From contig OX044357.1 in the NCBI GenBank assembly GCA_943846675.1, positions 1,546,010-1,610,009 on the forward strand: 64,000 nucleotides of DNA. Reading direction: 5' to 3'. The stretch is from an uncultured Bacteroidia bacterium (GTDB taxonomy: Bacteria > Bacteroidota > Bacteroidia > NS11-12g > UBA9320). The stretch's first letter is position 1. Each line of letters starts with the position of its first letter. Positions 2,842-25,273 of this stretch are shown one piece after another. The notes under the pieces were generated by a model. It was not told the origin of the DNA. It searched no databases and was given only the letters and a program-made list of their open reading frames with translations. A program made the translations under genes and the position numbers.

Positions 2842-2987
2842 ATGGAGAGGTAACGTGTATTAATGCGATTTGGTGTTATGTAATAGACAAATGTATTGTT
2901 AAAATGGTTGTACGAGGAGTATGAAGTATTAAGATGAAGATTTAACCTTGACAGAAATGCATTGCATTACTTACATTATGCGTCATT

Positions 2988-6394: not shown

Positions 6395-6699
6395 TAGTGT
6401 TATCACGGTGAACCTTACGGTGAGATATAAAAGTTCCTTCTCGTTCGCAGAAACGGTATATGAAACCTTTACATCGCCAAGCGGAAAAACATGGACAAAT
6501 TCAGGCACATATTTAGACACAATACCTAATGACGTTAATTGTGACAGCATCATAACGGTCGATTTGACTGTAATCAACAAGTTATTTGTCGATACAGATG
6601 GTTCATCAGGAACAGGAAAATCATGGGGGACTTCAATGAAAACACCTAGATGACGCCATCAAAGTAGCTAATGCAACGGGCAATCATGCTGAAATATGG

Positions 6700-9048
6700 G
6701 TGCGCAAGGGCATGTATTATCCTGGCGGACAATCGAGCAGCAATCGAGATTCAGCGTTCCTAATTACCAATCCAAATGTTGAATTATTAGGAGGTTTTTC
6801 TGGAACAGAAACAGAGCCTGGTCAACGTAATCAAACGGCTAACCCAACCATATTGTGTGGTGATATTGGCAAAGCAAACGATTCCTCGGATAATGCATAT
6901 CACGTATTGATTATTGCACCAAACGGATCAGACATCGGACCTAATTTTAAACTAGATGGGTTAACCTTTAAAAACGGTAACGCTGACGGGAACTCAAAAT
7001 ACACCTACGAAAATAGAGATGTATATCAATCAGAGGGTGGCTCAATAGTTATTCTGGGTAGTGGTAAGTCTGGCCAAGAGATTAGTCCAACGATTACCAA
7101 TTGTCATTTTGAAGGCAACTACGGCGATTATGGCTCGATTTACATACGCGTGCCTAATGGTAAGTCTTTTGCAACCATTAGCCATTGTACGTTTAAAAAC
7201 AACCATTCAATTTATGGCGCTATCTTTAACGATGGTCAAGCAGGTGAAGTATCTCCAAACATTGTAAACTGTGCCTTTGATGGCAACACAAGTGCCACTT
7301 CGGGTGCAGCGATATACAACTATGGTTATGGAGGCAAATGCTCTCCTACAATCACAAGTTGTGTGTTTAACAGCAACAGTGCTAGTTCAATGGGAGGAGC
7401 AATCTATAACACGGGTTATGGTGGAACATCCAATCCAGTGATCACAAACGCTACCTTCCATGCAAACGCAGCTGGTTCTCATGCAGGAGCGATGTATAGC
7501 TTTGGTAACAGCGGAACATGCCAACCTAAGGTGACCAACTCTATCTTTTACAAAAACACAAAAGGTGGAGATGTGGACCATAAGTTTAGTGAGTTCTATA
7601 ACTATGCAGCGTATCCATACATAAAAAATAGTTCGATGCAACGTGCAAGCTCAACATACACAGCAAGCACATTCAACAGCTTAAACAGCGGAACAAACAA
7701 CATCTTCCAGACCAATCCAAACTTTGAGGCGATTGCCGATGGCAATGGTGCGGATGATGTTTGGAGAACAGGAGATGATGGATTGAGATTATCTTCCTCA
7801 AGTACCAACTTGTTAAACGGTGGAACCAATACAGGTGCCCCAACTGCGGATATCTTAGGAAATCAGCGTATGGGAACAACCGACATGGGTGCTTACGAGT
7901 ATGTCAACTGTGGCTTAAATGTTAAACTAGCTACTTCGGTTACCACTCATACAGCAACGCAAAGTGTTGTGGATGGTAATTTTGTATGCTACTGTAACAG
8001 CGACAATGAATTACTCTTGGCTCTTGACACCAATGGAACTGGGGCGGTGATTACACCTAGTCAGGTAAAACTATACATTGGCAATCCATCAACCTTGAGT
8101 TACAACTCTGCTGGCGGTATGATAACCAACACGGCTGGTGGTGTGATACTAGAAAGACGTTGGGATGTGGAACCAACGACTCAACCAACTTCACCAGTAA
8201 CGGTTCGTTACTTCTACACCAACGACAACTACGACGACATTGTAACGGCTATGGCTGGATTAACATCGCCTACAACCATTACTTCGCCAAGTCAACTACA
8301 GTTTTACAAGGTAACAGGCGGCTCATCGGCAACCTTCCCGAACCCACATGATACGGGTGTAACGGGTATTGTACTGACCAACGGAACAACAGCCAGCACA
8401 ACAGTGTGGGTTAATGGAACACATGGTGTACAAGACCATACAGCAGAATACCTAGTAAGCACGTTCTCCGGTGGTGGAGGCGGAGGCGGGGGTGGATCTA
8501 GCCCACTACCAGTGGAACTGATCCAGTTCGAAGCAAGCCCAGCAGCTAGTCATACAGCAGACCTTACATGGAAGACCGCATCAGAGCTAAACAACTCACA
8601 TTTTGTAGTTGAACGTAGCTATGATGGTAGAGACTTCCAGGCAGCAGCAATTGTTCAAGGAAACGGTACCACACAAAACGTGATTACCTACAACCACAAC
8701 GACAATACGATTGATCTAGCACAAAACACTGTGTTCTATCGATTACGTCAGGTGGACTTTGATGGCACCACGGCTTACTCACCAGTAAGACGAGTAGACT
8801 TTGAAGGCAGCATCATACCAAACAGCGTAACGCTTTATCCAAACCCAACAAAAGGAACGGTTACGGTTAGCTTTACAGACGATGAGGCTGAAAGTCATGC
8901 GATTAAAGTAATTGACAACCTCGGAAGAGAGCTGTACAAGCAAACCTTCGACGGACAAGCCATAGAGCTTGATTTGTCGAGCCAAGCAACGGGCATCTAC
9001 TTTATCATTTTAGATTCTGGTGAATCCTTTAAAGTGATTAAACAGTAG
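6700..9048 (+). CDS. C-terminal ORF piece of the same frameshifted gene (beta-helix block, FN3/Ig-like domain, T9SS sorting domain); about 99% identical to 15486..17834
   Basis: 782-aa translation is nearly identical to the last 782 aa of the 2133-aa paralog. It ends in a G9 linker plus LYPNPTKGTVTVSF...IYFIILDSGESFKVIKQ, a T9SS type-A CTD. Confidence 0.7.
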   Translation: MRKGMYYPGGQSSSNRDSAFLITNPNVELLGGFSGTETEPGQRNQTANPTILCGDIGKANDSSDNAYHVLIIAPNGSDIGPNFKLDGLTFKNGNADGNSKYTYENRDVYQSEGGSIVILGSGKSGQEISPTITNCHFEGNYGDYGSIYIRVPNGKSFATISHCTFKNNHSIYGAIFNDGQAGEVSPNIVNCAFDGNTSATSGAAIYNYGYGGKCSPTITSCVFNSNSASSMGGAIYNTGYGGTSNPVITNATFHANAAGSHAGAMYSFGNSGTCQPKVTNSIFYKNTKGGDVDHKFSEFYNYAAYPYIKNSSMQRASSTYTASTFNSLNSGTNNIFQTNPNFEAIADGNGADDVWRTGDDGLRLSSSSTNLLNGGTNTGAPTADILGNQRMGTTDMGAYEYVNCGLNVKLATSVTTHTATQSVVDGNFVCYCNSDNELLLALDTNGTGAVITPSQVKLYIGNPSTLSYNSAGGMITNTAGGVILERRWDVEPTTQPTSPVTVRYFYTNDNYDDIVTAMAGLTSPTTITSPSQLQFYKVTGGSSATFPNPHDTGVTGIVLTNGTTASTTVWVNGTHGVQDHTAEYLVSTFSGGGGGGGGGSSPLPVELIQFEASPAASHTADLTWKTASELNNSHFVVERSYDGRDFQAAAIVQGNGTTQNVITYNHNDNTIDLAQNTVFYRLRQVDFDGTTAYSPVRRVDFEGSIIPNSVTLYPNPTKGTVTVSFTDDEAESHAIKVIDNLGRELYKQTFDGQAIELDLSSQATGIYFIILDSGESFKVIKQ

Positions 9049-9091
9049 TGAGAAAGTATCGTATTACTACACAAATACAATAAGAGAAGGC

Positions 9092-9122
9092 CATTCGTTT
9101 TACGGATGGCTTTTTTGTTGTT
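9092..9122 (+). terminator. rho-independent terminator downstream of giant gene 1 (identical copy at 17878..17908)
   Basis: ggccattcgttttacggatggcc is a stem-loop with one U-G wobble, followed by tttttt, about 45 nt after the stop codon. Confidence 0.6.
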
Positions 9123-9319
9123 CAATTGATTTGAAAATATAAAAAGTGAAGTAAACAAGATATCGGGTTCTGTTGCATTAACTTCCCCTGAATCCAGAAG
9201 TAACCAAATTCGATGTTTATTAAGCTGCTAAAGACTTAAATGTAGCAAACCAGTTTGACTTTGAATCTTTGATTTGGTCCTTTCTGTTGATGCAATCTAA
9301 AGGACAGAACCATAAATAA

Positions 9320-9469
9320 ACTTTTTCGCTTAATGACATAACAGTTGACCATGTGATACCATTGAGTGATATAAGCGACTATGATTTAAAGAAAGGGGCA
9401 CACACATGGGACAACGTTAAAACGTGTTGCATGGGTTGTAATACCCTTAAAGGGACTGACTTTGTATAA
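9320..9469 (+). pseudogene. remnant C-terminal fragment of an HNH endonuclease (no start codon)
   Basis: Translation is TFSLNDITVDHVIPLSDISDYDLKKGAHTWDNVKTCCMGCNTLKGTDFV*. It keeps the HNH signature (DH..P, N, CxxCN..KG) but is only about 49 codons long, with an upstream in-frame stop and no ATG. Confidence 0.5.
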
Positions 9470-9936
9470 ATATACACCCCAGCCCCCATTTCAAACATCC
9501 ATAGACAAGGCATGAGAAACGCAGCAATCTGTTATTTACACACGTGCAAGTTCAAAAAAAAGCCAAGTAGAGAAAGTCCAGTAAAGTAAAGGTCTAAAAG
9601 CGGTTATTGTCGACTATATGTAACCACATTAAAAAACAACTCCTAGATTATTGAAGAATTGCTTTGCAATTTGAGTGGTAACTAACAAAGATAAACTGCC
9701 GCAAATCCCTTGACAGGTAAGGGTTCGTTGAAATTTTAGACACAAAAAACCCCGACTTGGTACAGCCAGGGAATTTCGTTTAGCTCCGAAGAGCTAGTAG
9801 GGGGAATCAGAACGTTATCGAACTTTTTTGACGGTACAAAGGCCCGGCTATAAAATGTTGGGTAACGTTTAGGTTGGTTAGCCATGCATATTAGCCCTGT
9901 AAGGTGCTATGCACTAATTAAATTGTTATTTCAACT

Positions 9937-10272
9937 TTAGTACATTAAATGCTTTTTAGAACTTTCCTTCCACTGTGCTTTGTAGCTTGCATCTACGAAG
10001 AAGATTTTCAAATCTGCTTTATAAGCTGCATCCACGAAATATATTTTCTTTTTTGCCTTGTGAGCTGCATCTGTAAAAAACCATCTACCATTGTTATCTT
10101 CAGCCATATATGCTGCATCAACTTTGTAAACCAAAAGATCAGCTTTATATGCTGCGTCCACAACATAAACTTTAACATCCGCTTTGTAATCAGCATCTAC
10201 AGAATATATTAACTGGGCTTTAACGCTTGCACTAGCAATTAAAAGGGTTGTAATTAGGATTAATTTTTTCAT
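9937..10272 (-). CDS. small secreted protein made of tandem YKAD decapeptide repeats
   Basis: 111 aa. Signal peptide MKKLILITTLLIASASVKAQ, then about 7 repeats of x[VF]Y[VF]VDA[AS]YKAD[VL]K (VDADYKADVKVYVVDAAYKADLLVYKVDAAYMAED...IYFVDAAYKADLKIFFVDASYKAQWK). The conserved 19-bp motif sits 13-31 nt upstream. Confidence 0.55.
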   Translation of the reverse strand: MKKLILITTLLIASASVKAQLIYSVDADYKADVKVYVVDAAYKADLLVYKVDAAYMAEDNNGRWFFTDAAHKAKKKIYFVDAAYKADLKIFFVDASYKAQWKESSKKHLMY

Positions 10273-10805
10273 ATTGTTTCTTTTGGGTTCTGTTGCATTA
10301 ACTAGGGCAATTTACTATATCTTTAGATTTGAAATTAAAAACGACTTTAATGTTCAACCGTCACAGATATCCAAAATCAATAATTCTTCAAGCTGTTTAC
10401 TTTAAACTAAGATTTACAAAACAATATAGTTCAAAGACCGATTCTGTCGGATAATAACTCAAATAACCCACTGGGTTTTTCTACTATTCAAACTCCCATT
10501 GTAGCGGTTCATTAGTTGCATGTGAAATGGTTTCAAGTTTTGGGAAAACATAAGGCATCAGTTTAATCAAAAGCTCTATTCTTTGCTTTGGTTCCAACTC
10601 TTCGAGTCTTTCCTCAATATTCTCCAATTCCTACACATATCCCTCTATATACCAAGCTATCAATATCTTAAGTTGATAGCTGCTAATTTTTAAAACTAAT
10701 AGACTTAATGCCCTTAAGACACTGTCCAATGTTACTCTTTGTTTTTACAATAAATTTCTGCTTTGCAGAGTCCGAGTGAACATTTTATATGGCGTTTCTT
10801 ATACT

Positions 10806-11336
10806 TCAGAAATTTAACTGACTCTCCCAAGGAGGATTGAATTCTTTTACTCTTTTCATAGTACAATTTGGTCCAATCCAAATAACATAAGATAGCCCCG
10901 CTTGTAATTGGTTTCTGGTTCTATTCTGCAAGTAAGAGATATCAAAAATAAAGCGGTCATAACTACCTTTAATCCCAATTTTAGGAAGAATAGTGTAACT
11001 TTTTGTGTTTTCTCGGCTTGTTCGCTCCAATTGAGCTCCTAATACAGGAGTAAAACGATGTGCAACGTAGGCATGGTGCCAAGCTAATACGTTAAACTCT
11101 CCATTTATAAAAAAAGTAGAGAAGTCTTTATCATTCGAAAAAAGCACACCAGTATTTACAGCATACCTTAGATGCGAAAGACTCATTTTTGGGCCTGTTT
11201 GAGAAAAAGTGTTATTACTTAAACCTATTTGGTGTGAAATACCAGCAGATAGCATTTCGGATTTAAGTATCTGAGCTTTCAATTGATTAGCTGATAAAAT
11301 TAAGCACGTTATCAATATTATTTTTCTTGGATTCAT
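10806..11336 (-). CDS. small outer-membrane beta-barrel-like protein (hypothetical)
   Basis: The most probable start is MNPRKIILITCLILSANQLKAQ (signal peptide), 27 nt inside the tracked ORF. The protein has alternating amphipathic segments, aromatic residues, and a C-terminal ...SQLNF ending in Phe, as in OM beta-barrels. Confidence 0.45.
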   Translation of the reverse strand: MNPRKIILITCLILSANQLKAQILKSEMLSAGISHQIGLSNNTFSQTGPKMSLSHLRYAVNTGVLFSNDKDFSTFFINGEFNVLAWHHAYVAHRFTPVLGAQLERTSRENTKSYTILPKIGIKGSYDRFIFDISYLQNRTRNQLQAGLSYVIWIGPNCTMKRVKEFNPPWESQLNF

Positions 11337-11432
11337 CCCTTTGGTAACGTTTAGCAAATACAATTATTGTTTTTTGTAAATTGCTGGTATTAAAAGAATA
11401 GAGTTTTTAATAAACATCAATTTTTTTTACTT

Positions 11433-14400
11433 TTGGATTTGAGATTTCAAAAATTCAAGTCGCAAAATTTAAGTAGTATTATGAAATCATTTTACGTAGC
11501 TCGGCTAACAGCTGTACTTTTTTCCATTATTTGTTTTTCTTTTTCAAACACCGTAGCACAGTCATCAGGTGTGGTCAGCACGCTCGCTGGTAGTGGTGCA
11601 TCTGGCTATACAGATGGTACAGGGACATCGGCTCAGTTTTCCTATCCTATAGGAGTAGCGGTCGATGGCGCTGGAAATGTGTATGTAGCGGATCAGAATA
11701 ACCACCGCATTCGAAAAATAACTACATCAGGTGTGGTCAGCACGCTCGCTGGTAGTGGTACATCTGGCAATGCAGATGGTACAGGGACATCGGCTCAGTT
11801 TAACAATCCTTATGGAGTAGCGGTCGATGGCGCTGGAAATGTGTATGTAGCGGATTACAATAACCACCGCATTCGAAAAATAACTGCATCAGGTGTGGTC
11901 AGCACGCTCGCTGGTAGTACTCAGGGCAATACAGATGGTACAGGGACATCGGCTCAGTTTAACTCTCCTAGAGGAGTAGCGGTCGATGGCGCTGGAAATG
12001 TGTATGTAGCGGATGAGTATAACCACCGCATTCGAAAAATAACTGCATCAGGTGTGGTCGGCACCCTCGCTGGTAGTGCATCTGGCTATACAGATGGTAC
12101 AGGGACATCGGCTAAGTTTAAAAATCCTTATGGAGTAGCGGTCGATGGCGCTGGAAATGTGTATGTAGCGGATAGGTCAAACCACCGCATTCGAAAAATA
12201 ACTACATCAGGTGTGGTCAGCACGCTCGCTGGTAGTTCTCAGGGCTATACAGATGGTACAGGGACATCGGCTCAGTTTTACTATCCTAGCGGAGTAGCGG
12301 TCGATAGCGCTGGAAATGTGTATGTAGCGGATAAGGATAACCACCGCATTCGAAAAATAACTACATCAGGTGTGGTCAGCACGCTCGCTGGTAGTGGTAC
12401 ATCTGGCTATGCAGATGGTACAGGGACATCGGCTAAGTTTAACTATCCTTTCGGAGTAGCGGTCGATGGCGCTGGAAATGTGTATGTAGCGGATTACGTT
12501 AACCACCGCATTCGAAAAATAGGTCAGGCAACTTGCACAACACCCACAACACCATCACTAAGTGCATCACCTGATTCAATATGTAATGGGAATTCCAGTA
12601 CCTTGACCGTATCTGGATCAAAGAATGCTGCTTCAACTTGGAAGGTATATTCAGGTGGATGTGGAACTGGATTAGTTGATTCAATTACTGGAACTGGGAC
12701 TACATTATCCGTGTCACCAACCTCTACAACGAACTATTATGTCAGAGAAGAAGGTTGTGTAACAGCTGGAAGTTGCGGAACGACTGTTGTTACAGTGACA
12801 GCAGCTTCTTATAACACTATTACGGTAACGGTATGCGATACGTACACCTCTCCAAGTGGCAGGCATACCTGGTTTGTAACAGGAATATATAAAGACACGA
12901 TTCCAAACGCAGCAGGTTGCGATAGTATTCTAACAATAAACTTAACGGTAATTGCAACACCAATAGTTACTGTCAGCACGCTCGCTGGTAGTACATATGG
13001 CTATACAGATGGTACAGGGACATCGGCTAAGTTTTACAATCCTACTGGAGTAGCGGTCGATGGCGCTGGAAATGTGTATGTAGCGGATCGGTATAACCAC
13101 CGCATTCGAAAAATAACTACATCAGGTGTGGTCAGCACGCTCGCTGGTAGTGGTACATCTGGCAATGCAGATGGTACAGGGACATCGGCTCAGTTTTCCT
13201 ATCCTAGCGGAGTAGCGGTCGATAGCGCTGGAAATGTGTTTGTAGCGGATCGCAATAACCACCGCATTCGAAAAATAACTGCATCAGGTGTGGTCAGCAC
13301 GCTCGCTGGTAGTACTCAGGGCTATACAGATGGTACAGGGACATCGGCTAAGTTTGACTCACCTACAGGAGTAGCGGTCGATGGCGCTGGAAATGTGTAT
13401 GTAGCGGATCTGTATAACCACCGCATTCGAAAAATAACTGCATCAGGTGTGGTCAGCACCCTCGCTGGTAGTGCATCTGGCTATACAGATGGTACAGGGA
13501 CATCGGCTAAGTTTAAAAATCCTACAGGAGTAGCGGTCGATGGCGCTGGAAATGTGTATGTAGCGGATTACAATAACCACGGCATTCGAAAAATAACTAC
13601 ATCAGGTGTGGTCAGCACGCTCGCTGGTATTGCATATGGCTATACAGATGGTACAGGGACATCGGCTAAGTTTAAAAATCCTTATGGAGTAGCGGTCGAT
13701 GGCGCTGGAAATGTGTATGTAGCGGATCGGGATAACCACCGCATTCGAAAAATAACTACATCAGGTGTGGTCAGCACGCTCGCTGGTAGTTCTCAGGGCT
13801 ATACAGATGGTACAGGGACATCGGCTCAGTTTGCCTATCCTTTCGGAGTAGCGGTCGATGGTACTGGAAATGTGTATGTAGCGGATGAGTCAAACCACCG
13901 CATTCGAAAAATAACGTTAAGTGCTGGTAGTGCTGAAACGACTGAAACGATAACAGCAAATGTATGCGATACGTACACCTCTCCAAGTGGCAGGCATACC
14001 TGGTTTGTAACAGGAATATATAAAGACACGATTCCAAACGCAGCAGGTTGCGATAGTATTCTAACAATAAACTTAACGGTAATTGCAACACCAATAGTTA
14101 CTGTCAGCACGCTCGCTGGTAGTACTCAGGGCAATACAGATGGTACAGGGACATCGGCTCAGTTTTCCTATCCTACAGGAGTAGCGGTCGATGGCGCTGG
14201 AAATGTGTATGTAGCGGATCAGGATAACCACCGCATTCGAAAAATAACTACATCAGGTGTGGTCAGCACGCTCGCTGGTAGTGGTACACCTGGCTATACA
14301 GATGGTACAGGGACATCGGCTAAGTTTTACTTACCTATCGGAATAGCGGTCGATGGCGCTGGAAATGTGTATGTAGCGGATAGGTCAAACCACCGCATTC

Positions 14401-17400
14401 GAAAAATAACTGCATCAGGTGTGGTCAGCACCCTCGCTGGTAGTACTCAGGGCTATGCAGATGGTACAGGGACATCGGCTAAGTTTAACGTTCCTTTCGG
14501 AGTAGCGGTCGATGGCGCTGGAAATGTGTATGTAGCGGATTACAATAACCACCGCATTCGAAAAATAACTACATCAGGTGTGGTCAGCACGCTCGCTGGT
14601 AGTACATATGGCTATACAGATGGTACAGGGACATCGGCTCAGTTTGCCTATCCTTATGGAGTAGCGGTCGATGGCGCTGGAAATGTGTATGTAGCGGATA
14701 GGTCAAACCACCGCATTCGAAAAATAACTGCATCAGGTGTGGTCAGCACGCTCGCTGGTAGTTCTCAGGGCTATACAGATGGTACAGGGACATCGGCTAA
14801 GTTTTACTATCCTAGCGGAGTAGCGGTCGATGGCGCTGGAAATGTGTATGTAGCGGATCGGTCAAACCACCGCATTCGAAAAATAACTGCATCAGGTGTG
14901 GTCAGCACCCTCGCTGGTAGTACATATGGCTATACAGATGGTACAGGGACATCGGCTAAGTTTTACTTACCTACAGGAGTAGCGGTCGATGGCGCTGGAA
15001 ATGTGTATGTAGCGGATTACGTTAACCACCGCATTCGAAAAATAACGTTAAGTGCTGGTAGTGCTGAAACAACAGAAACGATAACAGCAAATGTATGCGA
15101 TAGCTATACCTCTCCAAGTGGAAAAACTTGGACAACAAGCAACACGTATTCAGATACGATTCCAAACACTGCGGGTTGTGATAGTGTTATCACGGTGAAC
15201 CTTACGGTGAGATATAAAAGTTCCTTCTCGTTCGCAGAAACGGTATATGAAACCTTTACATCGCCAAGCGGAAAAACATGGACAAATTCAGGCACATATT
15301 TAGACACAATACCTAATGACGTTAATTGTGACAGCATCATAACGGTCGATTTGACTGTAATCAACAAGTTATTTGTCGATACAGATGGTTCATCAGGAAC
15401 AGGAAAATCATGGGGGACTTCAATGAAAAACCTAGATGACGCCATCAAAGTAGCTAATGCAACGGGCAATCATGCTGAAATATGGGTGCGCAAGGGCATG
15501 TATTATCCTGGCGGACAATCGAGCAGCAATCGAGATTCAGCGTTCCTAATTACCAATCCAAATGTTGAATTATTAGGAGGTTTTTCTGGAACAGAGACAG
15601 AGCCTGGTCAACGAAATCAAACGGCCAATCCAACCATATTGTGTGGAGATATCGGTACAACAAACGATTCCTCTGACAATGTATACCACGTATTGATTAT
15701 TGCACCAAACGGATCAGACATCGGACCTAATTTTAAACTAGATGGGTTAACCTTTAAAAACGGTAACGCTGACGGGAACTCAAAATACACCTACGAAAAT
15801 AGAGATGTATATCAATCAGAGGGTGGCTCAATAGTTATTCTGGGTAGTGGTAAGTCTGGTCAAGAGATTAGTCCAACGATTACCAATTGTCATTTTGAAG
15901 GAAATTATGGCGATTATGGCTCGATTTACATACGCGTGCCTAATGGTAAGTCTTTTGCAACCATTAGCCATTGTACGTTTAAAAACAACCATTCAATTTA
16001 TGGCGCTATCTTTAACGATGGTCAAGCAGGTGAAGTATCTCCAAACATTGTAAACTGTGCCTTTGATGGCAACACAAGTGCCACTTCGGGTGCAGCGATA
16101 TACAACTATGGTTATGGAGGCAAATGCTCTCCTACAATCACAAGTTGTGTGTTTAACAGCAACAGTGCTAGTTCAATGGGAGGAGCAATCTATAACACGG
16201 GTTATGGTGGAACATCCAATCCAGTGATCACAAACGCTACCTTCCATGCAAACGCAGCTGGTTCTCATGCAGGAGCGATGTATAGCTTTGGTAACAGCGG
16301 AACATGCCAACCTAAGGTGACCAACTCTATCTTTTACAAAAACACAAAAGGTGGAGATGATGACCATAAGTTTAGTGAGTTCTATAACTATGCAGCGTAT
16401 CCATACATAAAAAATAGTTCGATGCAACGTGCAAGCTCAACATACACAGCAAGCACATTCAACAGCTTAAATAGTGGAACAAACAACATCTTCCAGACCA
16501 ATCCAAACTTTGAGGCGATTGCCGATGGCAATGGTGCGGATGATGTTTGGAGAACAGGAGATGATGGATTGAGATTATCTTCCTCAAGTACCAACTTGTT
16601 AAACGGTGGAACCAATACAGGTGCCCCAACTGCGGATATCTTAGGAAATCAGCGTATGGGAACAACCGACATGGGTGCTTACGAGTATGTCAACTGTGGC
16701 TTAAATGTTAAACTAGCTACTTCGGTTACCACTCATACAGCAACGCAAAGTGTTGTGGATGGTAATTTTGTATGCTACTGTAACAGCGACAATGAATTAC
16801 TCTTGGCTCTTGACACCAATGGAACTGGGGCGGTGATTACACCTAGTCAGGTAAAACTATACATTGGCAATCCATCAACCTTGAGTTACAACTCTGCTGG
16901 CGGTATGATAACCAACACGGCTGGTGGTGTGATACTAGAAAGACGTTGGGATGTGGAACCAACGACTCAACCAACTTCACCAGTAACGGTTCGTTACTTC
17001 TACACCAACGACAACTACGACGACATTGTAACGGCTATGGCTGGATTAACATCGCCTACAACCATTACTTCGCCAAGTCAACTACAGTTTTACAAGGTAA
17101 CAGGCGGCTCATCGGCAACCTTCCCGAACCCACATGATACGGGTGTAACGGGTATTGTACTGACCAACGGAACAACAGCCAGCACAACAGTGTGGGTTAA
17201 TGGAACACATGGTGTACAAGACCATACAGCAGAATACCTAGTAAGCACGTTCTCCGGTGGTGGAGGCGGAGGCGGGGGTGGATCTAGCCCACTACCAGTG
17301 GAACTGATCCAGTTCGAAGCAAGCCCAGCAGCTAGTCATACAGCAGACCTTACATGGAAGACCGCATCAGAGCTAAACAACTCACATTTTGTAGTTGAAC

Positions 17401-17834
17401 GTAGCTATGATGGTAGAGACTTCCAGGCAGCAGCAATTGTTCAAGGAAACGGTACCACACAAAACGTGATTACCTACAACCACAACGACAATACGATTGA
17501 TCTAGCACAAAACACTGTGTTCTATCGATTACGTCAGGTGGACTTTGATGGCACCACGGCTTACTCACCAGTAAGACGAGTAGACTTTGAAGGCAGCATC
17601 ATACCAAACAGCGTAACGCTTTATCCAAACCCAACAAAAGGAACGGTTACGGTTAGCTTTACAGACGATGAGGCTGAAAGTCATGCGATTAAAGTAATTG
17701 ACAACCTCGGAAGAGAGCTGTACAAGCAAACCTTCGACGGACAAGCCATAGAGCTTGATTTGTCGAGCCAAGCAACGGGTATCTACTTTATCATTTTAGA
17801 TTCTGGTGAATCCTTTAAAGTGATTAAACAGTAG
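11433..17834 (+). CDS. giant T9SS-secreted surface protein: NHL-repeat arrays + 2-Cys modules + Pmp-like beta-helix + FN3/Ig-like + T9SS type-A CTD
   Basis: 2133 aa with a signal peptide. It has about 19 copies of a 47-aa NHL repeat (SGVVSTLAGS..GYTDGTGTSA.F..P.GVAVDGAGNVYVAD..NHRIRKIT) in three blocks separated by a Cys-rich Ig-like segment and 2-Cys TITANVCD[ST]YTSPSG modules. The C-terminal 930 aa match 6125..9048 apart from the two single-base insertions in that copy, and end in LYPNP...IYFIILD...KVIKQ. Confidence 0.85.
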   Translation: MDLRFQKFKSQNLSSIMKSFYVARLTAVLFSIICFSFSNTVAQSSGVVSTLAGSGASGYTDGTGTSAQFSYPIGVAVDGAGNVYVADQNNHRIRKITTSGVVSTLAGSGTSGNADGTGTSAQFNNPYGVAVDGAGNVYVADYNNHRIRKITASGVVSTLAGSTQGNTDGTGTSAQFNSPRGVAVDGAGNVYVADEYNHRIRKITASGVVGTLAGSASGYTDGTGTSAKFKNPYGVAVDGAGNVYVADRSNHRIRKITTSGVVSTLAGSSQGYTDGTGTSAQFYYPSGVAVDSAGNVYVADKDNHRIRKITTSGVVSTLAGSGTSGYADGTGTSAKFNYPFGVAVDGAGNVYVADYVNHRIRKIGQATCTTPTTPSLSASPDSICNGNSSTLTVSGSKNAASTWKVYSGGCGTGLVDSITGTGTTLSVSPTSTTNYYVREEGCVTAGSCGTTVVTVTAASYNTITVTVCDTYTSPSGRHTWFVTGIYKDTIPNAAGCDSILTINLTVIATPIVTVSTLAGSTYGYTDGTGTSAKFYNPTGVAVDGAGNVYVADRYNHRIRKITTSGVVSTLAGSGTSGNADGTGTSAQFSYPSGVAVDSAGNVFVADRNNHRIRKITASGVVSTLAGSTQGYTDGTGTSAKFDSPTGVAVDGAGNVYVADLYNHRIRKITASGVVSTLAGSASGYTDGTGTSAKFKNPTGVAVDGAGNVYVADYNNHGIRKITTSGVVSTLAGIAYGYTDGTGTSAKFKNPYGVAVDGAGNVYVADRDNHRIRKITTSGVVSTLAGSSQGYTDGTGTSAQFAYPFGVAVDGTGNVYVADESNHRIRKITLSAGSAETTETITANVCDTYTSPSGRHTWFVTGIYKDTIPNAAGCDSILTINLTVIATPIVTVSTLAGSTQGNTDGTGTSAQFSYPTGVAVDGAGNVYVADQDNHRIRKITTSGVVSTLAGSGTPGYTDGTGTSAKFYLPIGIAVDGAGNVYVADRSNHRIRKITASGVVSTLAGSTQGYADGTGTSAKFNVPFGVAVDGAGNVYVADYNNHRIRKITTSGVVSTLAGSTYGYTDGTGTSAQFAYPYGVAVDGAGNVYVADRSNHRIRKITASGVVSTLAGSSQGYTDGTGTSAKFYYPSGVAVDGAGNVYVADRSNHRIRKITASGVVSTLAGSTYGYTDGTGTSAKFYLPTGVAVDGAGNVYVADYVNHRIRKITLSAGSAETTETITANVCDSYTSPSGKTWTTSNTYSDTIPNTAGCDSVITVNLTVRYKSSFSFAETVYETFTSPSGKTWTNSGTYLDTIPNDVNCDSIITVDLTVINKLFVDTDGSSGTGKSWGTSMKNLDDAIKVANATGNHAEIWVRKGMYYPGGQSSSNRDSAFLITNPNVELLGGFSGTETEPGQRNQTANPTILCGDIGTTNDSSDNVYHVLIIAPNGSDIGPNFKLDGLTFKNGNADGNSKYTYENRDVYQSEGGSIVILGSGKSGQEISPTITNCHFEGNYGDYGSIYIRVPNGKSFATISHCTFKNNHSIYGAIFNDGQAGEVSPNIVNCAFDGNTSATSGAAIYNYGYGGKCSPTITSCVFNSNSASSMGGAIYNTGYGGTSNPVITNATFHANAAGSHAGAMYSFGNSGTCQPKVTNSIFYKNTKGGDDDHKFSEFYNYAAYPYIKNSSMQRASSTYTASTFNSLNSGTNNIFQTNPNFEAIADGNGADDVWRTGDDGLRLSSSSTNLLNGGTNTGAPTADILGNQRMGTTDMGAYEYVNCGLNVKLATSVTTHTATQSVVDGNFVCYCNSDNELLLALDTNGTGAVITPSQVKLYIGNPSTLSYNSAGGMITNTAGGVILERRWDVEPTTQPTSPVTVRYFYTNDNYDDIVTAMAGLTSPTTITSPSQLQFYKVTGGSSATFPNPHDTGVTGIVLTNGTTASTTVWVNGTHGVQDHTAEYLVSTFSGGGGGGGGGSSPLPVELIQFEASPAASHTADLTWKTASELNNSHFVVERSYDGRDFQAAAIVQGNGTTQNVITYNHNDNTIDLAQNTVFYRLRQVDFDGTTAYSPVRRVDFEGSIIPNSVTLYPNPTKGTVTVSFTDDEAESHAIKVIDNLGRELYKQTFDGQAIELDLSSQATGIYFIILDSGESFKVIKQ

Positions 17835-17877
17835 TGAGAAAGTATCGTATTACTACACAAATACAATAAGAGAAGGC

Positions 17878-17908
17878 CATTCGTTTTACGGATGGCTTTT
17901 TTGTTGTT
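17878..17908 (+). terminator. rho-independent terminator (duplicate of 9092..9122)
   Basis: Identical hairpin plus T-run within the duplicated cassette. Confidence 0.6.
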
Positions 17909-18043
17909 CAATTGATTTGAAAATATAAAAAGTGAAGTAAACAAGATATCGGGTTGGTGAAAGTATTTACGGATATAAGTTGGTTTAAGACCAGTAGCTA
18001 GTTACGAATACTAGTTTTATATATTACTAACGCGTAATATTAT

Positions 18044-19015
18044 TTGTATATTCGCTTTATGGAGTTCAAACCCCTTGAATCATATCTATCTGATCCTAGT
18101 CCTTACACAAGCCGTAGACTCGTGGAACAGTTGGGTGAGGAAAAGTTTACCATTAATGACATAGGCGTTAGTTCACGGGTGTTTACCCATTGGCGATCAA
18201 ATGGGTTAATCCCTTATATGGAGGATGGTTCATGGGTAAAATTGAATGTGTTTCAATTTATCTGGGTACAGATAATTAAAGACTTGCGTGCGTTTAACTT
18301 TTCTTTAAAGCAGATTGTCAAAGTACGCGCTTCGCTATTTGAGTCCTTCGAAGGGTTTGCTACGGCGGATTTGTTTGATAAAAAAGGAAAGATAACCAAG
18401 GTATTGCGAGCACAGCTTAAAAAGATGTTCGACAATCACCAAGAGATAATTGAAGGCTTAGAAAGTAGTTTCGAGTCGGATTCAAATTCAATAAAAGATT
18501 TCCTTGAGGCTTTTCAAATCCCATTGCTCCTATCACTTAGCTTGAACGTATTGTTCCGTGCAATGGATCACACGCTACTGATTAGGCCAGATGGTCGAGT
18601 TGATTATACTTCAGAAACGCAAGACGAGACATTGGTCAATTACTTGTCCGAGCACGATGCGGAGTCCATCTTGGTGCTTCCACTCAAAAAGTACATTCTG
18701 GTGCTGGTATCGACAAAAAAACTAGAAGATAAAGTTGGTAATATGGCCCTGGTTACCCAAGTTGAAATGGAAGTTTTACAAGCCATGCGGCAGGGAACGC
18801 TATCCGAACTTAGAATAATTTTTGACCCCAAAGACCAACACGCAGATTTGGTGTATACCTATAAAGGGGTTGTACCCGAAAATGAAATGAGTAAAGTTTT
18901 AGATCGTTTTCGGCATAAAAAACACGTTCAATTGTCTATGAAAACCAATGACGGTAAAACGGTATCTTTCGAATACCAAGACCGAAAACGGGTCCATAAA
19001 TTAAATGGAAATTAA
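18044..19015 (+). CDS. MerR/excisionase-like winged-HTH protein with a C-terminal domain of unknown function
   Basis: 323 aa. The N-terminus (TINDIGVSSRVFTHWRSNGLIPY...VKLNVFQFIWVQIIKDLRAFNFSLKQI) matches the MerR/Xis HTH_17 pattern. The remaining roughly 230 aa have no recognisable motif. It sits immediately upstream of the iterons and the serine recombinase. Confidence 0.5.
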   Translation: MYIRFMEFKPLESYLSDPSPYTSRRLVEQLGEEKFTINDIGVSSRVFTHWRSNGLIPYMEDGSWVKLNVFQFIWVQIIKDLRAFNFSLKQIVKVRASLFESFEGFATADLFDKKGKITKVLRAQLKKMFDNHQEIIEGLESSFESDSNSIKDFLEAFQIPLLLSLSLNVLFRAMDHTLLIRPDGRVDYTSETQDETLVNYLSEHDAESILVLPLKKYILVLVSTKKLEDKVGNMALVTQVEMEVLQAMRQGTLSELRIIFDPKDQHADLVYTYKGVVPENEMSKVLDRFRHKKHVQLSMKTNDGKTVSFEYQDRKRVHKLNGN

Positions 19016-19100
19016 TTGATAATTAATTCAGATTAATTGATAATAAACTCGGATTAATTGATAATTAATTCAGATTAATTGATAATAAACTCGGATTAAT
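19016..19100. repeat. tandem 41-bp iterons rich in ATTAAT(N5)ATTAAT palindromes
   Basis: ggattaattgataattaattcagattaattgataataaactc is repeated about 2.3 times and contains at least 6 copies of TTAATTGAT. It lies between the MerR-like gene and the recombinase gene. Confidence 0.7.
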
Positions 19101-19235
19101 TGATTTTTAAATGGAAATTAATGGACAAAAAGAGGTGTAGATGCAGTAATGACAAGGCATTGAAGAACTCAAGCCAATTAAATACGGGTTCATTAGAAAC
19201 GGAAACACCGCTAATGGGCATACTCCAATTGAGTT

Positions 19236-19379
19236 ATGTCAGAAAAGTCAAAACAAGGACTTACAATACAAGAATTAAAAACCTATAGCGGATTTGAAAA
19301 ACTAAGTGAGAAGGAATTAGAACAAGCGCTTCGATTTATTGAGTTGATGAGTGAGGTGCTTATTGAAACATTGAAATAA
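19236..19379 (+). CDS. possible small ORF (47 aa, helical) upstream of the recombinase; a speculative RDF/Xis-like candidate
   Basis: MSEKSKQGLTIQELKTYSGFEKLSEKELEQALRFIELMSEVLIETLK* ends 8 nt before the recombinase start. There is no homology evidence, and it overlaps the tracked ORF 19100..19288 in another frame. Confidence 0.25.
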   Translation: MSEKSKQGLTIQELKTYSGFEKLSEKELEQALRFIELMSEVLIETLK

Positions 19380-19386
19380 AAGAATA

Positions 19387-21015
19387 ATGCAGCATGTAGA
19401 TCAACAATTGGCAGTCTTTGCCAAAGGGCAAAAGAACAACAAAGGGAAGGCCATTACAGCGGTCATGTATACCCGTGTATCGACCAAGGAACAGGCCGAT
19501 AACAATCAGAGTCTCTTTACGCAAGCAAAGCACATCAAGCAATTTGCAATGAACAATGATTTGCAGATAATAGGGGAATTTGGTGGGACTTATGAAAGCG
19601 CCAAGAGTGATGAACGGGTTCAGTTCAAACAAATGATTGCCTTTGTCAAAAGACATAAGGTAGATGCCATTGTGGTATACTCGATGGATCGCTTTTCAAG
19701 AAGTGGTCCCAATGCTATTTACATTTCAGAACAACTCAGAAAGATAGGTACTGAGATTATATCTGTAACCCAACCTGTAGACGCCTCTACAGCTGCTGGG
19801 GAATTGCAACAGGGAATTTACTTTATGTTCTCACAATATGAGAATCAGCAAAGGCGCTTAAAGTCCATGGCGGGCACCCGTGAAAAGCTATTACAAGGAC
19901 ATTGGGTTACCAAACCACCCTTAGGGTACAAGAAGATCACAGAAGGTGGACAAAAGAAAATAGTCATCACAAAAGAAGGTAGATTGCTGGCAGCAGCATT
20001 TAGAAGAAAGATTAAGTACAACTACGAATTTACTGAAATTAGTAAGTGGCTGTCAACAAGAGGTCTAAAGGTGAGTCATAAAAGATTATCTGAGTTATGT
20101 AGAAACGTATTTTATTGCGGTTTCATGGCCCATCAGGCATTAAATGGAGAGATTGTAAAGGGCAATCATGAAGGACTCATCACACGTAATGAGTTCTTGA
20201 AGCTGAATGGCATGCTTCAAATCAGACCTGCCAAAAAGCCAAAATCAAAAATGTTGGATCATCTACCCTTAAAGAGGCACATGCATTGCTCAAAGTGCAG
20301 CAAACCAATGACGGGTTACTTTGTGCGACCAAAGAAGTTATATTACTACAAGTGCAATACGAAAGGTTGTAAAGTCAATAGAAGTGCTAAGGTGTTAAAC
20401 CGAAACTGGGAACAGACGCTTTCCAATCTTCAGATAGATGCAAAATACGTTACACCCATCCAAGAACAGCTCAAACGAAAGCTCGAAAGCTTAAAAGAAG
20501 ACTCTGGTGATGGGCTAAAACAGTATCGCAGTAACAAAACAAAGGTTGAGAGGAAGATAGAGATGTTGGAAGAACGATTTGTAATAGGAGAAATTACCAA
20601 AGACTTATTTGATAAGTACGCTGCTAAATATAGAGAAGAATTGGTGGCAATATTAGAAGAAATCGACAAATGTGGAATTTCATTATCGAACCCTGATCAG
20701 GTAATCAAGCAGGCCACTGATTTGATGTCTAAACTTCAGAAAACCTGGCAGTTATCAAAATCAACAGAAAGATCAAAGTTGCTTAAAGCGGTCTACCCAA
20801 GCGGAATTTGGCTTGATCCTGAAAATAACAGTTATCGAACTTTTGGTTTGAACCCAGCGGTGCGCTGTATCCTAGATATAACGGGGAAATCCGTAGAAAA
20901 GGAAAAGCGGAATAGTGAAGATAAACTCACATATTCCGCTTTGGTAGCCCCTAGGGGAATCGAACATAGCTTCGTATCATTCGCTGGAGCTAATATACCT
21001 ATTTTAACATTTTAA
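19387..21015 (+). CDS. large serine recombinase (resolvase catalytic domain + recombinase domain + zinc-ribbon)
   Basis: 542 aa. It carries the catalytic motif VMYTRVSTKEQ...SMDRFSRSG (resolvase/invertase N-terminal domain), a long recombinase domain, a Cys-rich zinc ribbon (CSKCSKPMTGYF...YYYKCNTKGC) and a C-terminal coiled-coil. Confidence 0.85.
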   Translation: MQHVDQQLAVFAKGQKNNKGKAITAVMYTRVSTKEQADNNQSLFTQAKHIKQFAMNNDLQIIGEFGGTYESAKSDERVQFKQMIAFVKRHKVDAIVVYSMDRFSRSGPNAIYISEQLRKIGTEIISVTQPVDASTAAGELQQGIYFMFSQYENQQRRLKSMAGTREKLLQGHWVTKPPLGYKKITEGGQKKIVITKEGRLLAAAFRRKIKYNYEFTEISKWLSTRGLKVSHKRLSELCRNVFYCGFMAHQALNGEIVKGNHEGLITRNEFLKLNGMLQIRPAKKPKSKMLDHLPLKRHMHCSKCSKPMTGYFVRPKKLYYYKCNTKGCKVNRSAKVLNRNWEQTLSNLQIDAKYVTPIQEQLKRKLESLKEDSGDGLKQYRSNKTKVERKIEMLEERFVIGEITKDLFDKYAAKYREELVAILEEIDKCGISLSNPDQVIKQATDLMSKLQKTWQLSKSTERSKLLKAVYPSGIWLDPENNSYRTFGLNPAVRCILDITGKSVEKEKRNSEDKLTYSALVAPRGIEHSFVSFAGANIPILTF

Positions 21016-21089
21016 TTTCCAGCACCTTGGGTCTTACGGCTTTTCCGAGGTTACCCTTCGAAAATTACTGAAGGGTTAAAAAGGGGGAT

Positions 21090-21230
21090 TTAGGATTTAG
21101 GAATTAGGAGTTAGGGGAGGAGAGGAAAGAGAAAAGAGAATAGAGAAAAGACCTTACTAATCTGCCAATAGCTAATAGCCAAAAGCCAATAGCGATTAGG
21201 GATCGCCTAAATGAATAGAGAAAATAGATT
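21090..21230. repeat. low-complexity TTAGG / AGAGAAnAGAG / AATAGC repeat tract related to 2988..3075
   Basis: gggggatttaggatttaggaattaggagttaggggaggagaggaaagagaaaagagaatagagaaaag...gccaatagctaatagccaaaagccaatagcgattaggg. Confidence 0.6.
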
Positions 21231-21342
21231 TAAGAGATTAAGTCTAAAATTTCTCAATACTTTATACTTATATATCCCTTCTCCGTTAATAACTTTTACT
21301 CCAAACAAATTATTAGAACTTTGGGTTTGCTATTTTTGAATT

Positions 21343-22368
21343 GTGCAAAACGAAAATCTTGATCCGTCTTTAGATAACTTGTCAAATTCTGATAGAGACA
21401 TTGAGAAAGTACTCCGCCCTGCCAGTTTTAGTGACTTTAGTGGGCAAGACAAGATTCTGACAAATCTGAAGATTTTTGTTCAAGCCGCCGTTCAGCGGGG
21501 AGAAGCATTAGACCATGTATTGCTTCATGGGCCTCCAGGGTTGGGTAAAACGACTTTAAGTAACATTATCGCTAACGAGATGAATAGCGCGATAAAAGTG
21601 ACAAGTGGTCCTGTCTTAGAGAAACCCGGTGATTTAGCAGGTTTGTTGACGAACTTAGAAGAAGGCGATGTACTTTTTATTGACGAGATACATCGACTGA
21701 GCCCGGTAATAGAAGAGTATTTGTATTCGGCCATGGAGGATTATCGAATCGATATCATGCTCGATACCGGTCCGAACGCCAGAAGTGTGCAGATAACCAT
21801 TAACCCATTCACCCTTGTGGGCGCCACGACACGTTCAGGATTGCTTACGGCGCCTTTACGCGCACGATTTGGTATTACTTGTCGATTAGAATACTACGAT
21901 GCATCCTTGCTCGCTCAAATTCTGAAACGGTCGTCCGATATTTTACATACACAGATTGATGACCAAGCGGCGAATGAAATAGCGCGTAGAAGTAGAGGTA
22001 CACCACGTATAGCGAACGCACTTTTACGTCGGACAAGAGATTTTGCCCAGATTAAGGGTAACGGTCAAGTAGACCTTGAAATAGCTAAATATGCCTTAGA
22101 GGCTTTAAATGTAGATGCTACTGGTCTGGACGAAATGGACAACCGTATTTTGAGTACGATTATTGAAAAGTTTAAAGGAGGCCCAGTCGGTATTAATACC
22201 ATTGCTACAGCGGTCGGAGAGGAAGCCGGCACGATTGAAGAAGTGTACGAACCTTTTTTAATTAAGGAAGGCTATATCCAACGAACAGCCAGAGGTAGAG
22301 AAGCAACGCATTTGGCATACGAACATTTGGGTAAAATCCCTCCGCAAAAAATAAACAGTTTGTTTTGA
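21343..22368 (+). CDS. ruvB: Holliday junction branch-migration helicase RuvB
   Basis: 341 aa with the AAA+ Walker A motif [19 protein letters not shown] and the RuvB C-terminal winged helix. It reads colinearly into the next gene. Confidence 0.9.
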
Positions 22369-23294
22369 GTTCGCTCACGCTTAGACAACGAACGGAATTC
22401 GTAAAAAAAACAGTTAAAGAACACGGATTTCTCAATTGCGGAATCAGCCAAAGTGGATTCCTCGAAGAAGAAGCTCCTCATGTAGAATCATGGCTTTCCA
22501 ATGGCTATCATGGGTCTATGCAATGGATGGAGAATCACTTTGATAAGCGTCTTGATACCTCTAAACTAGTTGAAGGGTCCAAATCCGTCATCACCATGAC
22601 GTTCAATTATTTTCCAGAAGAGTTTCAAAAACCTGGAGCTCCGAAGGTGGCGAAATACGCTTATGGGGAAGATTATCACTTTGTACTCAAAGACAAAATG
22701 CGGTTGGTGCTAGAAAGCCTGCAGAGAGAAATTGGTGCATTCGAATCACGCATATTTGTCGATAGCGCCCCTGTACTTGAACGCGCATGGGCTGCTAAAT
22801 CTGGATTAGGTTGGATTGGCAAACACTCCTTATTGCTGAGTAAAAAACAAGGCTCATTTTTCTTTATTGCTCAAATCATCTGTGATTTAGAGCTTGACTA
22901 CGACGGGCCAACGACAGATCACTGTGGTAGTTGTACGGCCTGCATTGACGCTTGCCCCACAGATGCGATTGTGGCGGATCGGATTGTTGACTCGAACAAA
23001 TGTATTTCATACTTAACCATCGAGTTGAAAGATCAAATATCAAACGACTTTAAAGATCAGATGGAGGATTGGATCTTTGGTTGCGACATCTGCCAAGATG
23101 TGTGCCCTTGGAATAGATTTTCAACGCCAAACCAAGAAGCCAGGTTTAAGCCTCGCGATGCAATACTTCAAAATTCTTTGGAGGATTGGGAAGAAATAAC
23201 GGAAGATGTTTTTAAGGATATATTCAAAAAGTCGGCCGTCAAAAGAACGAAGTTTTCAGGTTTTTTACGGAATTTGCGGTTTGCAAACCAATAA
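22365..23294 (+). CDS. queG: epoxyqueuosine reductase QueG
   Basis: 309 aa with 4Fe-4S ferredoxin motifs ([16 protein letters not shown]; [12 protein letters not shown]), a pattern characteristic of QueG. It overlaps the ruvB stop by 4 nt. Confidence 0.75.
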
Positions 23295-23297
23295 TGA

Positions 23298-24713: not shown

Positions 24714-24715
24714 CT

Positions 24716-25273
24716 ATGAAAAAACTGTTTGTCTTATGGGCCGTTTGTGTTTGTTTTAGTTTTAAAACAAGCAATGCTGACTTTGAGCAGGACTATGTGG
24801 ACACACAACAAATTGAATCTTTAATTGTCAAGAGGCTCAACGAAATCAGAGCCCAAAAAGAACTTTCTGTTTTAACTGAAAACACAATTCTAAAAAAGGC
24901 AGCTGATGATCAAGCCCGCTACATTTCCAACAAAGGTTCGTTATCACATAGTCAACCTTCTAAGGCTAAGGAAAAAACACGTAACAGGGTGGAGTATTAC
25001 GGAGGCAAAATGCAAGGTATAGGAGAGAATACAGCCTACTTAAAGGTGTTCGGGAGGGCCCTGTTTAAAGGAAAAGAGGGTCAAATAGATACCGTTAATA
25101 TTAACACTGTAGATAGAGCAGTGGATTACTTCGTTTATGCATGGATGAACTCTGTACCGCACAAAACCAACATTCTATACCCCGATTACAGTGAAACGGG
25201 CTTAAAGGTTATTTACAACAAGCAGCGCAAAGCCTTGTATGGTGTTCAAGTATTTGCCTACCCGTATAAATGA
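24716..25273 (+). CDS. secreted CAP/SCP/PR-1-like domain protein
   Basis: 185 aa with a signal peptide. The motifs HSQ...GENTAY...YFVYAWMNSVPHKTNIL are consistent with a CAP domain, but the call is tentative. Confidence 0.45.
   Translation: MKKLFVLWAVCVCFSFKTSNADFEQDYVDTQQIESLIVKRLNEIRAQKELSVLTENTILKKAADDQARYISNKGSLSHSQPSKAKEKTRNRVEYYGGKMQGIGENTAYLKVFGRALFKGKEGQIDTVNINTVDRAVDYFVYAWMNSVPHKTNILYPDYSETGLKVIYNKQRKALYGVQVFAYPYK

Follow-up and report, generated by a model that had tools for sequence, protein, structure and literature searches.

An NHL propeller array of an uncultured Bacteroidia bacterium combines a nearly invariant codon scaffold with hypervariable loop codons, probably through gene conversion and diversifying selection

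The stretch analyzed here (the window) comprises 64 kb of DNA of an uncultured Bacteroidia bacterium and carries, as the cargo of a putative integrative element, a gene for a large protein with 18 NHL repeats and a C-terminal sorting domain of the type IX secretion system (T9SS). The repeats stand in three blocks of six, predicted to close into three beta-propellers, and they combine a scaffold that is almost invariant at the codon level with about 11 hypervariable codons per repeat, all but one of which are placed by the structural model on one propeller face. Gene conversion among the blades of this gene and of its paralogues, which would homogenize the scaffold, together with diversifying selection on a ligand-binding face is the probable explanation of this pattern. 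As an evolutionary mode this has precedents; what is new is its occurrence in NHL repeats, in an extracellular setting and in connection with a mobile element. For the comparisons, W denotes the copy in the window and L001 to L013 the related loci, all of which come from metagenome assemblies, several of them being long-read assemblies with many frameshifts.

According to the listing of open reading frames (ORFs), 11433..17834 on the plus strand is the sole long reading frame across the region and is intact over 6.4 kb. The ORF tool opens it at a TTG (11433); the likely true start is the ATG at 11481 (MKSFYVARLTAVLFSIICFSFSNTVAQ, signal-peptide-like), and a hydrophobic N-terminus ending in AQ was seen by eye in the translation. 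The repeat type named in the first-pass annotation was borne out by the Pfam search, in which 18 NHL repeats (PF01436) were found with an E value of 1.4e-156 and 501.8 bits (cut-off 20). At the other end of the protein, Por_Secre_tail (PF18962) matched amino acids (aa) 2063-2129 (~17619..17819) with an E value of 9.8e-12, and the NCBIfam model TIGR04183 matched with 37.6 bits (cut-off 23). The order of the domains is three NHL propellers, linker domains, a region that resembles the beta-helix of polymorphic membrane proteins (PMP) and the C-terminal sorting domain.

The unit borders were set by anchoring on the TLAG motif, which gave units of 159 or 162 bp (53 or 54 codons), in agreement with the period of 159 bp returned by Tandem Repeats Finder. 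The three blocks of tandem NHL units lie essentially where the first-pass annotation had placed them, and the strings that it quoted do belong to the scaffold. If up to two mismatches are allowed, a scaffold string of 42 nt is found 18 times (chance expectation 0). Several of its measurements had to be replaced, as the unit is longer than the 141 bp given there, and every block holds exactly six copies rather than six to seven. A 153-bp module reported to be identical at 12826..12978 and 13943..14095 is out of register (offset 1117), with 39 matches in 153 positions, and the true duplicate is an exact one of 164 bp with an offset of 1131 bp. The reported period of about 1131 bp applies between blocks 2 and 3 only, blocks 1 and 2 being 1395 bp apart. 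Furthermore, the units are not repeated almost verbatim: their pairwise identity averages 89.7% (82-96%) at the nucleotide level and 83.4% (75.5-92.5%) at the protein level, with the differences concentrated in about 11 codon columns; roughly 10% of the positions are hypervariable. Between super-repeats, the identity is 91-94%.

When the 18 units were aligned by codon, about 40 of the 54 codons proved invariant or altered in only one or two units, synonymous differences were almost nil, and approximately 32 scaffold codons were codon-identical in nearly all units. The hypervariable columns are 11, 12, 14, 15, 23, 25, 26, 28, 43, 44 and 53; here the changes are mostly nonsynonymous and involve several nucleotides each, with four to six amino acids at columns 12, 25, 26, 28, 43 and 44 and two to three at the others. 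The same contrast holds in a pooled set made of the window and ten related loci (11 loci with 124 units, of which 101 are in frame and 82 unique). Across these 82 unique units, no variation at all is seen in 20 of the 32 scaffold codons, and in two others the only substitutions are nonsynonymous, while columns 25, 26, 43 and 44 hold 10 amino acids each, and the proportion of nonsynonymous differences (pN) is 0.39-0.65 at the variable columns.

The fold was predicted with AlphaFold2 for propeller 1 (11553..12548), the only propeller that was modelled. A single sequence gave a predicted local distance difference test score (pLDDT) of 39.5, and an alignment of 27 homologous propellers was needed to obtain a confident model (pLDDT 95.9, predicted template modelling score 0.93), which has six four-stranded blades, the last of them completed by the N-terminal strand. 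The top match in Foldseek was a bacterial teneurin-like protein (9ifo, E value 1.6e-26, template modelling (TM) score 0.87); further matches were the lumenal domain of SOQ1, Pizza6, Thin, NHLRC2, TRIM71/Lin41 and teneurins, and the TM scores to NHL propellers were 0.83-0.87. By this model, the array is predicted to be three closed six-bladed NHL propellers separated by linker domains and not an extensible stalk. The earlier idea of a beta-propeller stalk whose size would follow the repeat number is at odds with this architecture, since six blades close and a free change in unit number would break the fold; nor was length heterogeneity seen at the locus, the three assemblies of the locus or of its closest relative (W, L001 and L008) all having 6+6+6 units with identical spacers.

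In the DSSP string of the model, strand A occupies columns 27-32, strand B 38-42, strand C 47-51 and strand D columns 2-7 of the following unit. Accordingly, the D-to-A loop or its end contains columns 11-28 and the B-to-C loop columns 43-44; in a four-stranded meander, these two loops lie on the same face. The model thereby places 10 of the 11 variable columns on what would be one face of the propeller; the exception is column 53, mostly a T or an A, which falls on the other face, in the C-to-D loop. The variable-loop face of a propeller is the one that usually binds ligands. The NHL protein is likely a surface or secreted protein, and it would present 18 distinct binding patches on three propeller faces.

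A young family could have an identical scaffold without any ongoing homogenization: a single blade would have been amplified very recently, the propellers and the element would then have been duplicated, and the loop codons would have evolved fast under positive selection. New propellers do arise continuously from the amplification of single blades (PMC9218822). The proportion of synonymous differences (pS) of the scaffold against the pooled consensus is 0.003-0.016 per locus (0.02 in L005, with 2 units), which resembles that of the element backbone, i.e., the recombinase and the gene of a 318-aa protein (0.003-0.024; 0 for the 318-aa gene in L001). In addition, identity is slightly higher between blades that occupy equivalent positions in different propellers than between other pairs (91.2% vs 89.5%, permutation p 0.003), as would be expected after propeller duplication.

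We nevertheless consider such a history unlikely, as a recent origin fails to explain unlinked patches, recurrent rare variants, patch swaps between strains, the homogenization of the upstream paralogue (paralogue A) and loop codons close to saturation. In 78 unique units, three patches of variable columns (A, B and C) have 23, 62 and 32 variants, respectively, and the mutual information among them equals the permutation null; the patches are in linkage equilibrium. Non-orthologous blades of different loci also have rare variants of the scaffold in common. For instance, the double substitution GGC GCT to GGT ACT is present in unit 12 of W, unit 12 of L008 and units 2 and 3 of L002, and R47S occurs in 13 units of six loci, including a run in units 1-5 of L002. 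Under pure point mutation, near-saturated loops next to almost untouched synonymous sites of the scaffold would require a rate gap of at least 30-fold.

The comparison of W with L001, which represents this locus in a strain of 99.78% identity, points in the same direction. Over 24.5 kb, 54 differences (alignment columns) were counted, and 51 of these are in repeated DNA: in paralogue A (6370-6765), in the NHL array (11812-14934) and in the duplicated 3' half. The remaining three are one column of an intergenic A/T-run indel and two substitutions in the recombinase. Two clusters in the array (14281-14290 and 14909-14934) swap whole patches, i.e., they are clustered multi-base changes and not single mutations, and for one swapped patch, exact donors exist within the gene itself, in units 7 and 16. 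Moreover, 6281..9169 in paralogue A and 15069..17955 at the NHL gene form a 2889-bp direct repeat that is 99.07% identical, while the same region is 95-98% identical between genomes, which supports a homogenization of the 3' half of paralogue A within the genome.

Taken as a mechanism, homologous exchange (short-tract gene conversion or unequal recombination) would be frequent among the blades, the three propellers and paralogous genes elsewhere in the genome; it would homogenize the scaffold and shuffle the variable patches, and diversifying selection would keep the loop residues different. What the analysis shows is how the repeats are built and are predicted to fold, where the codons vary, that patches are unlinked and rare variants shared, that strains differ mainly inside repeats, that the family has many copies and that the gene lies in a mobile-element setting; conversion as the mechanism, selection as the cause of the variability and ligand binding as the function are what we infer. 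The first-pass annotation had regarded the array as a substrate of recombination, which our data support, and had derived from near-perfect identity either ongoing concerted evolution or a very recent expansion. The near-perfect identity did not hold; concerted evolution is the better supported of the two, on account of the shared rare variants, the clustered patch swaps and the homogenized 3' half of paralogue A.

Several points weigh against the combination of conversion and diversifying selection. The pS of the scaffold (about 0.01-0.02) is no lower than that of the element backbone, and a very recent expansion could by itself explain the identity of the scaffold. Selection was deduced from counts of nonsynonymous and synonymous differences. 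For the swapped patch in unit 18 of L001, the compared loci offer no exact donor, and some of the strain differences inside repeats could be polishing errors. Finally, the placement of the variable residues on one face is read from strand topology.

Targeted hypermutation of the loop codons, either by a diversity-generating retroelement (DGR) or by an analogue unlike the known ones, would account for variability that is confined to fixed codons, several of which are constant at the third base (NNC or NNT) in the manner of DGR targets, and the residue spectrum (Y, S, N, T, D, R) does resemble that of binder libraries. The substitutions themselves have a different signature, as scaffold adenines (AAT, AAA ATA ACT, AAC CAC) never vary in the 82 units and the variable codons change at non-adenine bases and at all three codon positions. 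We know of no described DGR with eighteen target sites in one gene, and across several genes. The DGR version is refuted locally, as a reverse-transcriptase domain is absent from all 38 window ORFs of ≥150 aa, and we give hypermutation in general very little credence.

It is also very improbable that the array was collapsed, expanded or chimerized during assembly. Near-identical repeats are a known assembly hazard (PMC9218822; 10.1101/2025.01.13.632504), related long-read loci have numerous frameshifts, and the short-read contigs L004, L005, L011 and L012 end inside the array. In the window, however, the ORF is intact over its whole length, L001 and the metagenome-assembled genome (MAG) locus L008 give the same 6+6+6 arrangement with spacers of 600 and 335 bp, and the variable patches make every unit distinguishable, which provides unique anchors for the assembly. 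That the adjacent large serine recombinase shuffles blades or propellers in a programmed way, as in a shufflon or an invertible system, is hardly credible. This recombinase is linked to the gene in every locus, but no inverted repeats ≥200 bp were reported in the interval 1..26000, the blades are without exception direct repeats, the enzyme sits at a discrete element end by tRNA genes in the manner of an integrase, and a homologue of 54% identity, which is paired with the same 318-aa protein, has copper-resistance cargo in place of an NHL gene.

The blade motif is widespread, with more than 7400 homologous multi-NHL proteins, in which the median blade-to-blade identity is about 0.48; the lineage studied here, with 0.81-0.87, is at the extreme of the distribution. 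A scan for the 42-nt scaffold (one genome per species) retrieved the Bacteroidia MAG AE_MB266 with at least 5 loci and 49 exact copies, and a second MAG whose contigs end inside the array; the scan of metagenomes yielded two short contigs only. Viral contigs gave 0 matches to the scaffold, and a phage origin, which was also considered, has no support given this absence from the scanned viral contigs.

L002 and L003 contain the same gene type in other genomic contexts, and the paralogues differ mostly by whole propellers and linker modules, the counts of linker modules being variable. The unit counts of L006 and L009 (Table 1) are incompatible with closed six-bladed propellers, and decay of these copies or faulty assembly may be the reason. 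In L007 and L010, a PMP-type beta-helix N-terminus is joined to a single propeller, an architecture by which the propellers and the linker modules of 49 aa with two cysteines behave as shuffled cassettes. L007 was considered as a silent donor cassette and rejected, as it is a full-length gene with its own signal peptide. Paralogue A is split into the ORFs 3410..6394 and 6700..9048 by 1-bp insertions at 6380 and 6643 relative to the NHL gene, and is either a pseudogene or a carrier of sequencing errors.

The joint between the propellers is a two-Cys module of ~49 aa (consensus ...CDSYTSPSGKTWTTSNTYSDTIPNTAGCDSVITVNLTV...) without a Pfam match, which is found in the window at 12831..12965, 13962..14096 and 15054..15330 and also occurs in tandem, with at least 7 copies in L007 (about 6900..8000) and 5 in P0003. 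The Cys-rich segment that precedes it in linker 1 looks immunoglobulin (Ig)-like and had no Pfam match either (12531..12830). It is 100% identical in W, L001 and L008 (12535..12830), although L008 is only ~98% identical overall, and a 32-mer taken from it had 0 matches in the JGI metagenome collection.

Downstream of the array, the 3' half of the NHL gene has a pS of 0.05-0.15 between distinct loci, the values for L001 and L006 being 0.007-0.017. Compared with L002, L003, L009 and L010, this part (15222..17831) is far more diverged than the adjoining recombinase and 318-aa gene, and its higher divergence suggests a mosaic ancestry of the 3' segment.

The putative integrative element has discrete ends: the left one is the same in W, L003 and L008 and the right one in W, L002/L005, L003 and L010, with different flanks each time; the end sequences are ...CCGCTTTGGTAG on the right and GTAGGGGGAATCAGAAC... 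on the left. By supplying the last ~6 nt, the right edge completes a tRNA-Met in L002 (8193..8269) and a tRNA-Glu in L003 (18106..18180). An intact tRNA gene was not found in the window, where a short remnant adjoins the element. The left flanks have a hairpin and a T-run on the minus strand (read by eye), which is consistent with an insertion between a tRNA gene and its terminator. The 3' ends of tRNA genes are classic targets of tyrosine integrases rather than of serine integrases. The element is present in multiple copies in one genome; neither a circular junction nor an empty site was recovered.

The large serine recombinase at the right end also had an XisF/Ccr-like match in NCBIfam that remained below the cut-off. 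Its last ~22 codons lie in flanking DNA past the end of the element, and the C-terminal lengths differ between loci. The 318-aa protein accompanies the recombinase even in a distant element: in L013 (8779..11590), the gene of a recombinase with 54% identity again follows that of a 318-aa protein, and the cargo there is a P-type ATPase and a copper oxidase that has a T9SS tail, without an NHL gene. This suggests a conserved two-gene core with exchangeable cargo. Neither the 318-aa protein nor the 185-aa element protein had a family match in NCBIfam or PHROGs. The genes of the DUF6150 protein and of the 185-aa protein at the left end are both kept in L001 and L003, and the DUF6150 protein has, after a signal-peptide-like start, short internal repeats (about 6 copies of a V/FVDAAYKADLK-like motif).

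The rest of the window is ordinary chromosome and includes genes for RuvB, QueG, PriA and urocanase. It also holds two more T9SS cargo genes, one for an M4 thermolysin-like peptidase with PKD domains (30191..33748, minus strand) and one for an M36 fungalysin-like peptidase (59749..63243, plus strand), which suggests that the host exports several large proteins by the T9SS route.

Table 1. Positions of the features in the window and arrangement of the NHL units in W and the related loci
Feature	Position	Strand	Remarks
Paralogue A	3410..9169	+	Chlam_PMP/POMP-repeat N-terminus, T9SS sorting domain
Putative integrative element, ~11.15 kb	9797..20948		NHL gene as cargo; identical ends, differing flanks
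DUF6150 protein gene, 111 aa	9937..10272	-	Left end of the element
185-aa protein gene	10806..11363	-	Signal-peptide-like start
Putative T9SS cargo gene (NHL gene), 2117 aa	11481..17834	+	ORF; Pfam NHL x18 and Por_Secre_tail; NCBIfam TIGR04183
Propeller 1	11568..12530	+	Six NHL units starting at 11568, 11730, 11892, 12051, 12210, 12369
Linker 1	12531..12965	+	Cys-rich Ig-like-looking segment, then one ~49-aa two-Cys module
Exact 164-bp duplicate, copy 1	12831..12994	+	Two-Cys linker module and start of propeller 2
Propeller 2	12966..13922	+	Six NHL units starting at 12966, 13125, 13287, 13446, 13605, 13764
Linker 2	13923..14096	+	Contains most of copy 2 of the 164-bp duplicate
Exact 164-bp duplicate, copy 2	13962..14125	+	Offset 1131 from copy 1; reaches the first bases of propeller 3
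Propeller 3	14097..15053	+	Six NHL units starting at 14097, 14256, 14418, 14577, 14736, 14895
3' half of the NHL gene and 120 bp downstream	15069..17955	+	Two two-Cys modules, PMP-like beta-helix, T9SS sorting domain
Conserved element protein, 318/323 aa	18044..19015	+	Accompanies the recombinase, also in a distant element
47-aa ORF	19236..19379		Between the 318-aa gene and the recombinase
Large serine recombinase, 542 aa	19387..21015	+	Resolvase PF00239 (E 8.7e-26), Recombinase PF07508 (E 4.5e-6), PHROG 95 integrase (E 5.4e-70)
tRNA-Glu remnant, 18 nt	20948..20965	-	Identical to the 3' part of the tRNA-Glu flanking the element in L003
NHL units of W, L001, L008			6+6+6; identical spacers of 600 and 335 bp
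NHL units of L003			6+6+6; longer linkers
NHL units of L002			At least 6+6
NHL units of L007, L010			6
NHL units of L006	L006 4726..6000	-	8 contiguous, no linker; many frameshifts
NHL units of L009	L009 2399..5760		6+6+5, then deletion into the 3' half; many frameshifts

The closest known parallel in evolutionary mode is offered by the repeats with high internal conservation (HIC) of fungal NOD-like receptors (NLRs), such as the WD40 repeats of HET-E, HET-D and HNWD and also ANK and TPR repeats, in which concerted evolution acts within and between paralogues (10.1101/2025.01.13.632504; PMC4986451). Both systems have near-identical propeller repeats, a few hypervariable codons on the known or, here, predicted interaction face, shuffling between paralogues and a sequence that is hard to assemble. 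They differ in that the present repeats are NHL and not WD40, in a bacterium and not in a fungus, and in a putative T9SS cargo that would be secreted or on the surface instead of an intracellular STAND/NLR sensor. About 11 codons vary per repeat as compared with 4 in the fungal HIC repeats, the array is predicted to form three closed six-bladed propellers, the gene is on a putative multi-copy integrative element, and no repeat-number polymorphism was seen at the same locus (W, L001 and L008). With a mean protein identity of 83.4%, the blades are just under the HIC threshold of ≥85% identity over ≥100 aa (PMC4986451), while the scaffold codons are identical to ~100%.

Highly repetitive propellers that were recently amplified from single blades have been described mostly from bacteria, including Bacteroidetes, together with a warning about their assembly (Pereira and Lupas 2022, PMC9218822). 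That study reports independent amplifications in close homologues and blades that are near-identical at the nucleotide level, as in the NHL array; it stresses amplification followed by divergence and not hypervariable sites in a homogenized scaffold, and it names NHL 0 times. In the literature searched, we found no paper that joins "NHL repeat" and "type IX secretion". Multi-propeller NHL proteins of Bacteroidota, Acidobacteriota and Verrucomicrobiota share with the protein studied here the motif of 53 or 54 residues (GVVTTLAGSG..G..DGTGT.A.F..P.GVAVD..GNVYVAD..N.RIRKIT), the presence of several propellers and the same variable positions, and they are annotated as "sugar lactone lactonase YvrE", "streptogramin lyase" or "teneurin NHL domain-containing".

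Pizza6 (PDB 3ww9 and derivatives) is, like propeller 1, a six-fold symmetric NHL-like propeller (Foldseek E value about 1e-21, 35-36% identity). It was designed, with identical blades of 42 residues and without variable loop patches, whereas the NHL protein is natural and has longer and variable D-to-A loops. Another parallel is provided by the repeats of transcription activator-like (TAL) effectors, which are near-identical over 102 bp, carry two hypervariable residues and are reshuffled by recombination. These share with the NHL array a constant nucleotide scaffold with variable codons at fixed places; they form an open solenoid with a code of one repeat per DNA base, in contrast to closed propellers that would present a face.

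More speculatively, and in our view rather doubtfully, NHL arrays of this kind might be a bacterial recombination-based system for the diversification of surface receptors, in which scaffold segments of 21-42 nt would be kept identical as substrates of recombination, the element-borne paralogues would serve as a donor pool, and lineages would rapidly gain new combinations of patches. Such a system would be a functional analogue of the fungal HIC receptors or of the variable lymphocyte receptors of lampreys, and would differ from them in being a secreted T9SS protein on a tRNA-targeting serine-integrase element.

If conversion of the scaffold and diversifying selection on the loops are indeed at work, the concerted evolution of a scaffold with hypervariable residues, a mode best documented in intracellular immune receptors of fungi, would extend to NHL propellers, to bacteria and to extracellular T9SS cargo. 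The analysis also flags a gene family that short-read assemblies cannot resolve. The family amounts to a natural library of at least 78 different blades on one scaffold, which could guide the design of propeller-based binders (cf. the Pizza proteins). For the bacteria themselves, the link with a multi-copy integrative element suggests a means to spread variable binding proteins and to supply donors for their further variation.

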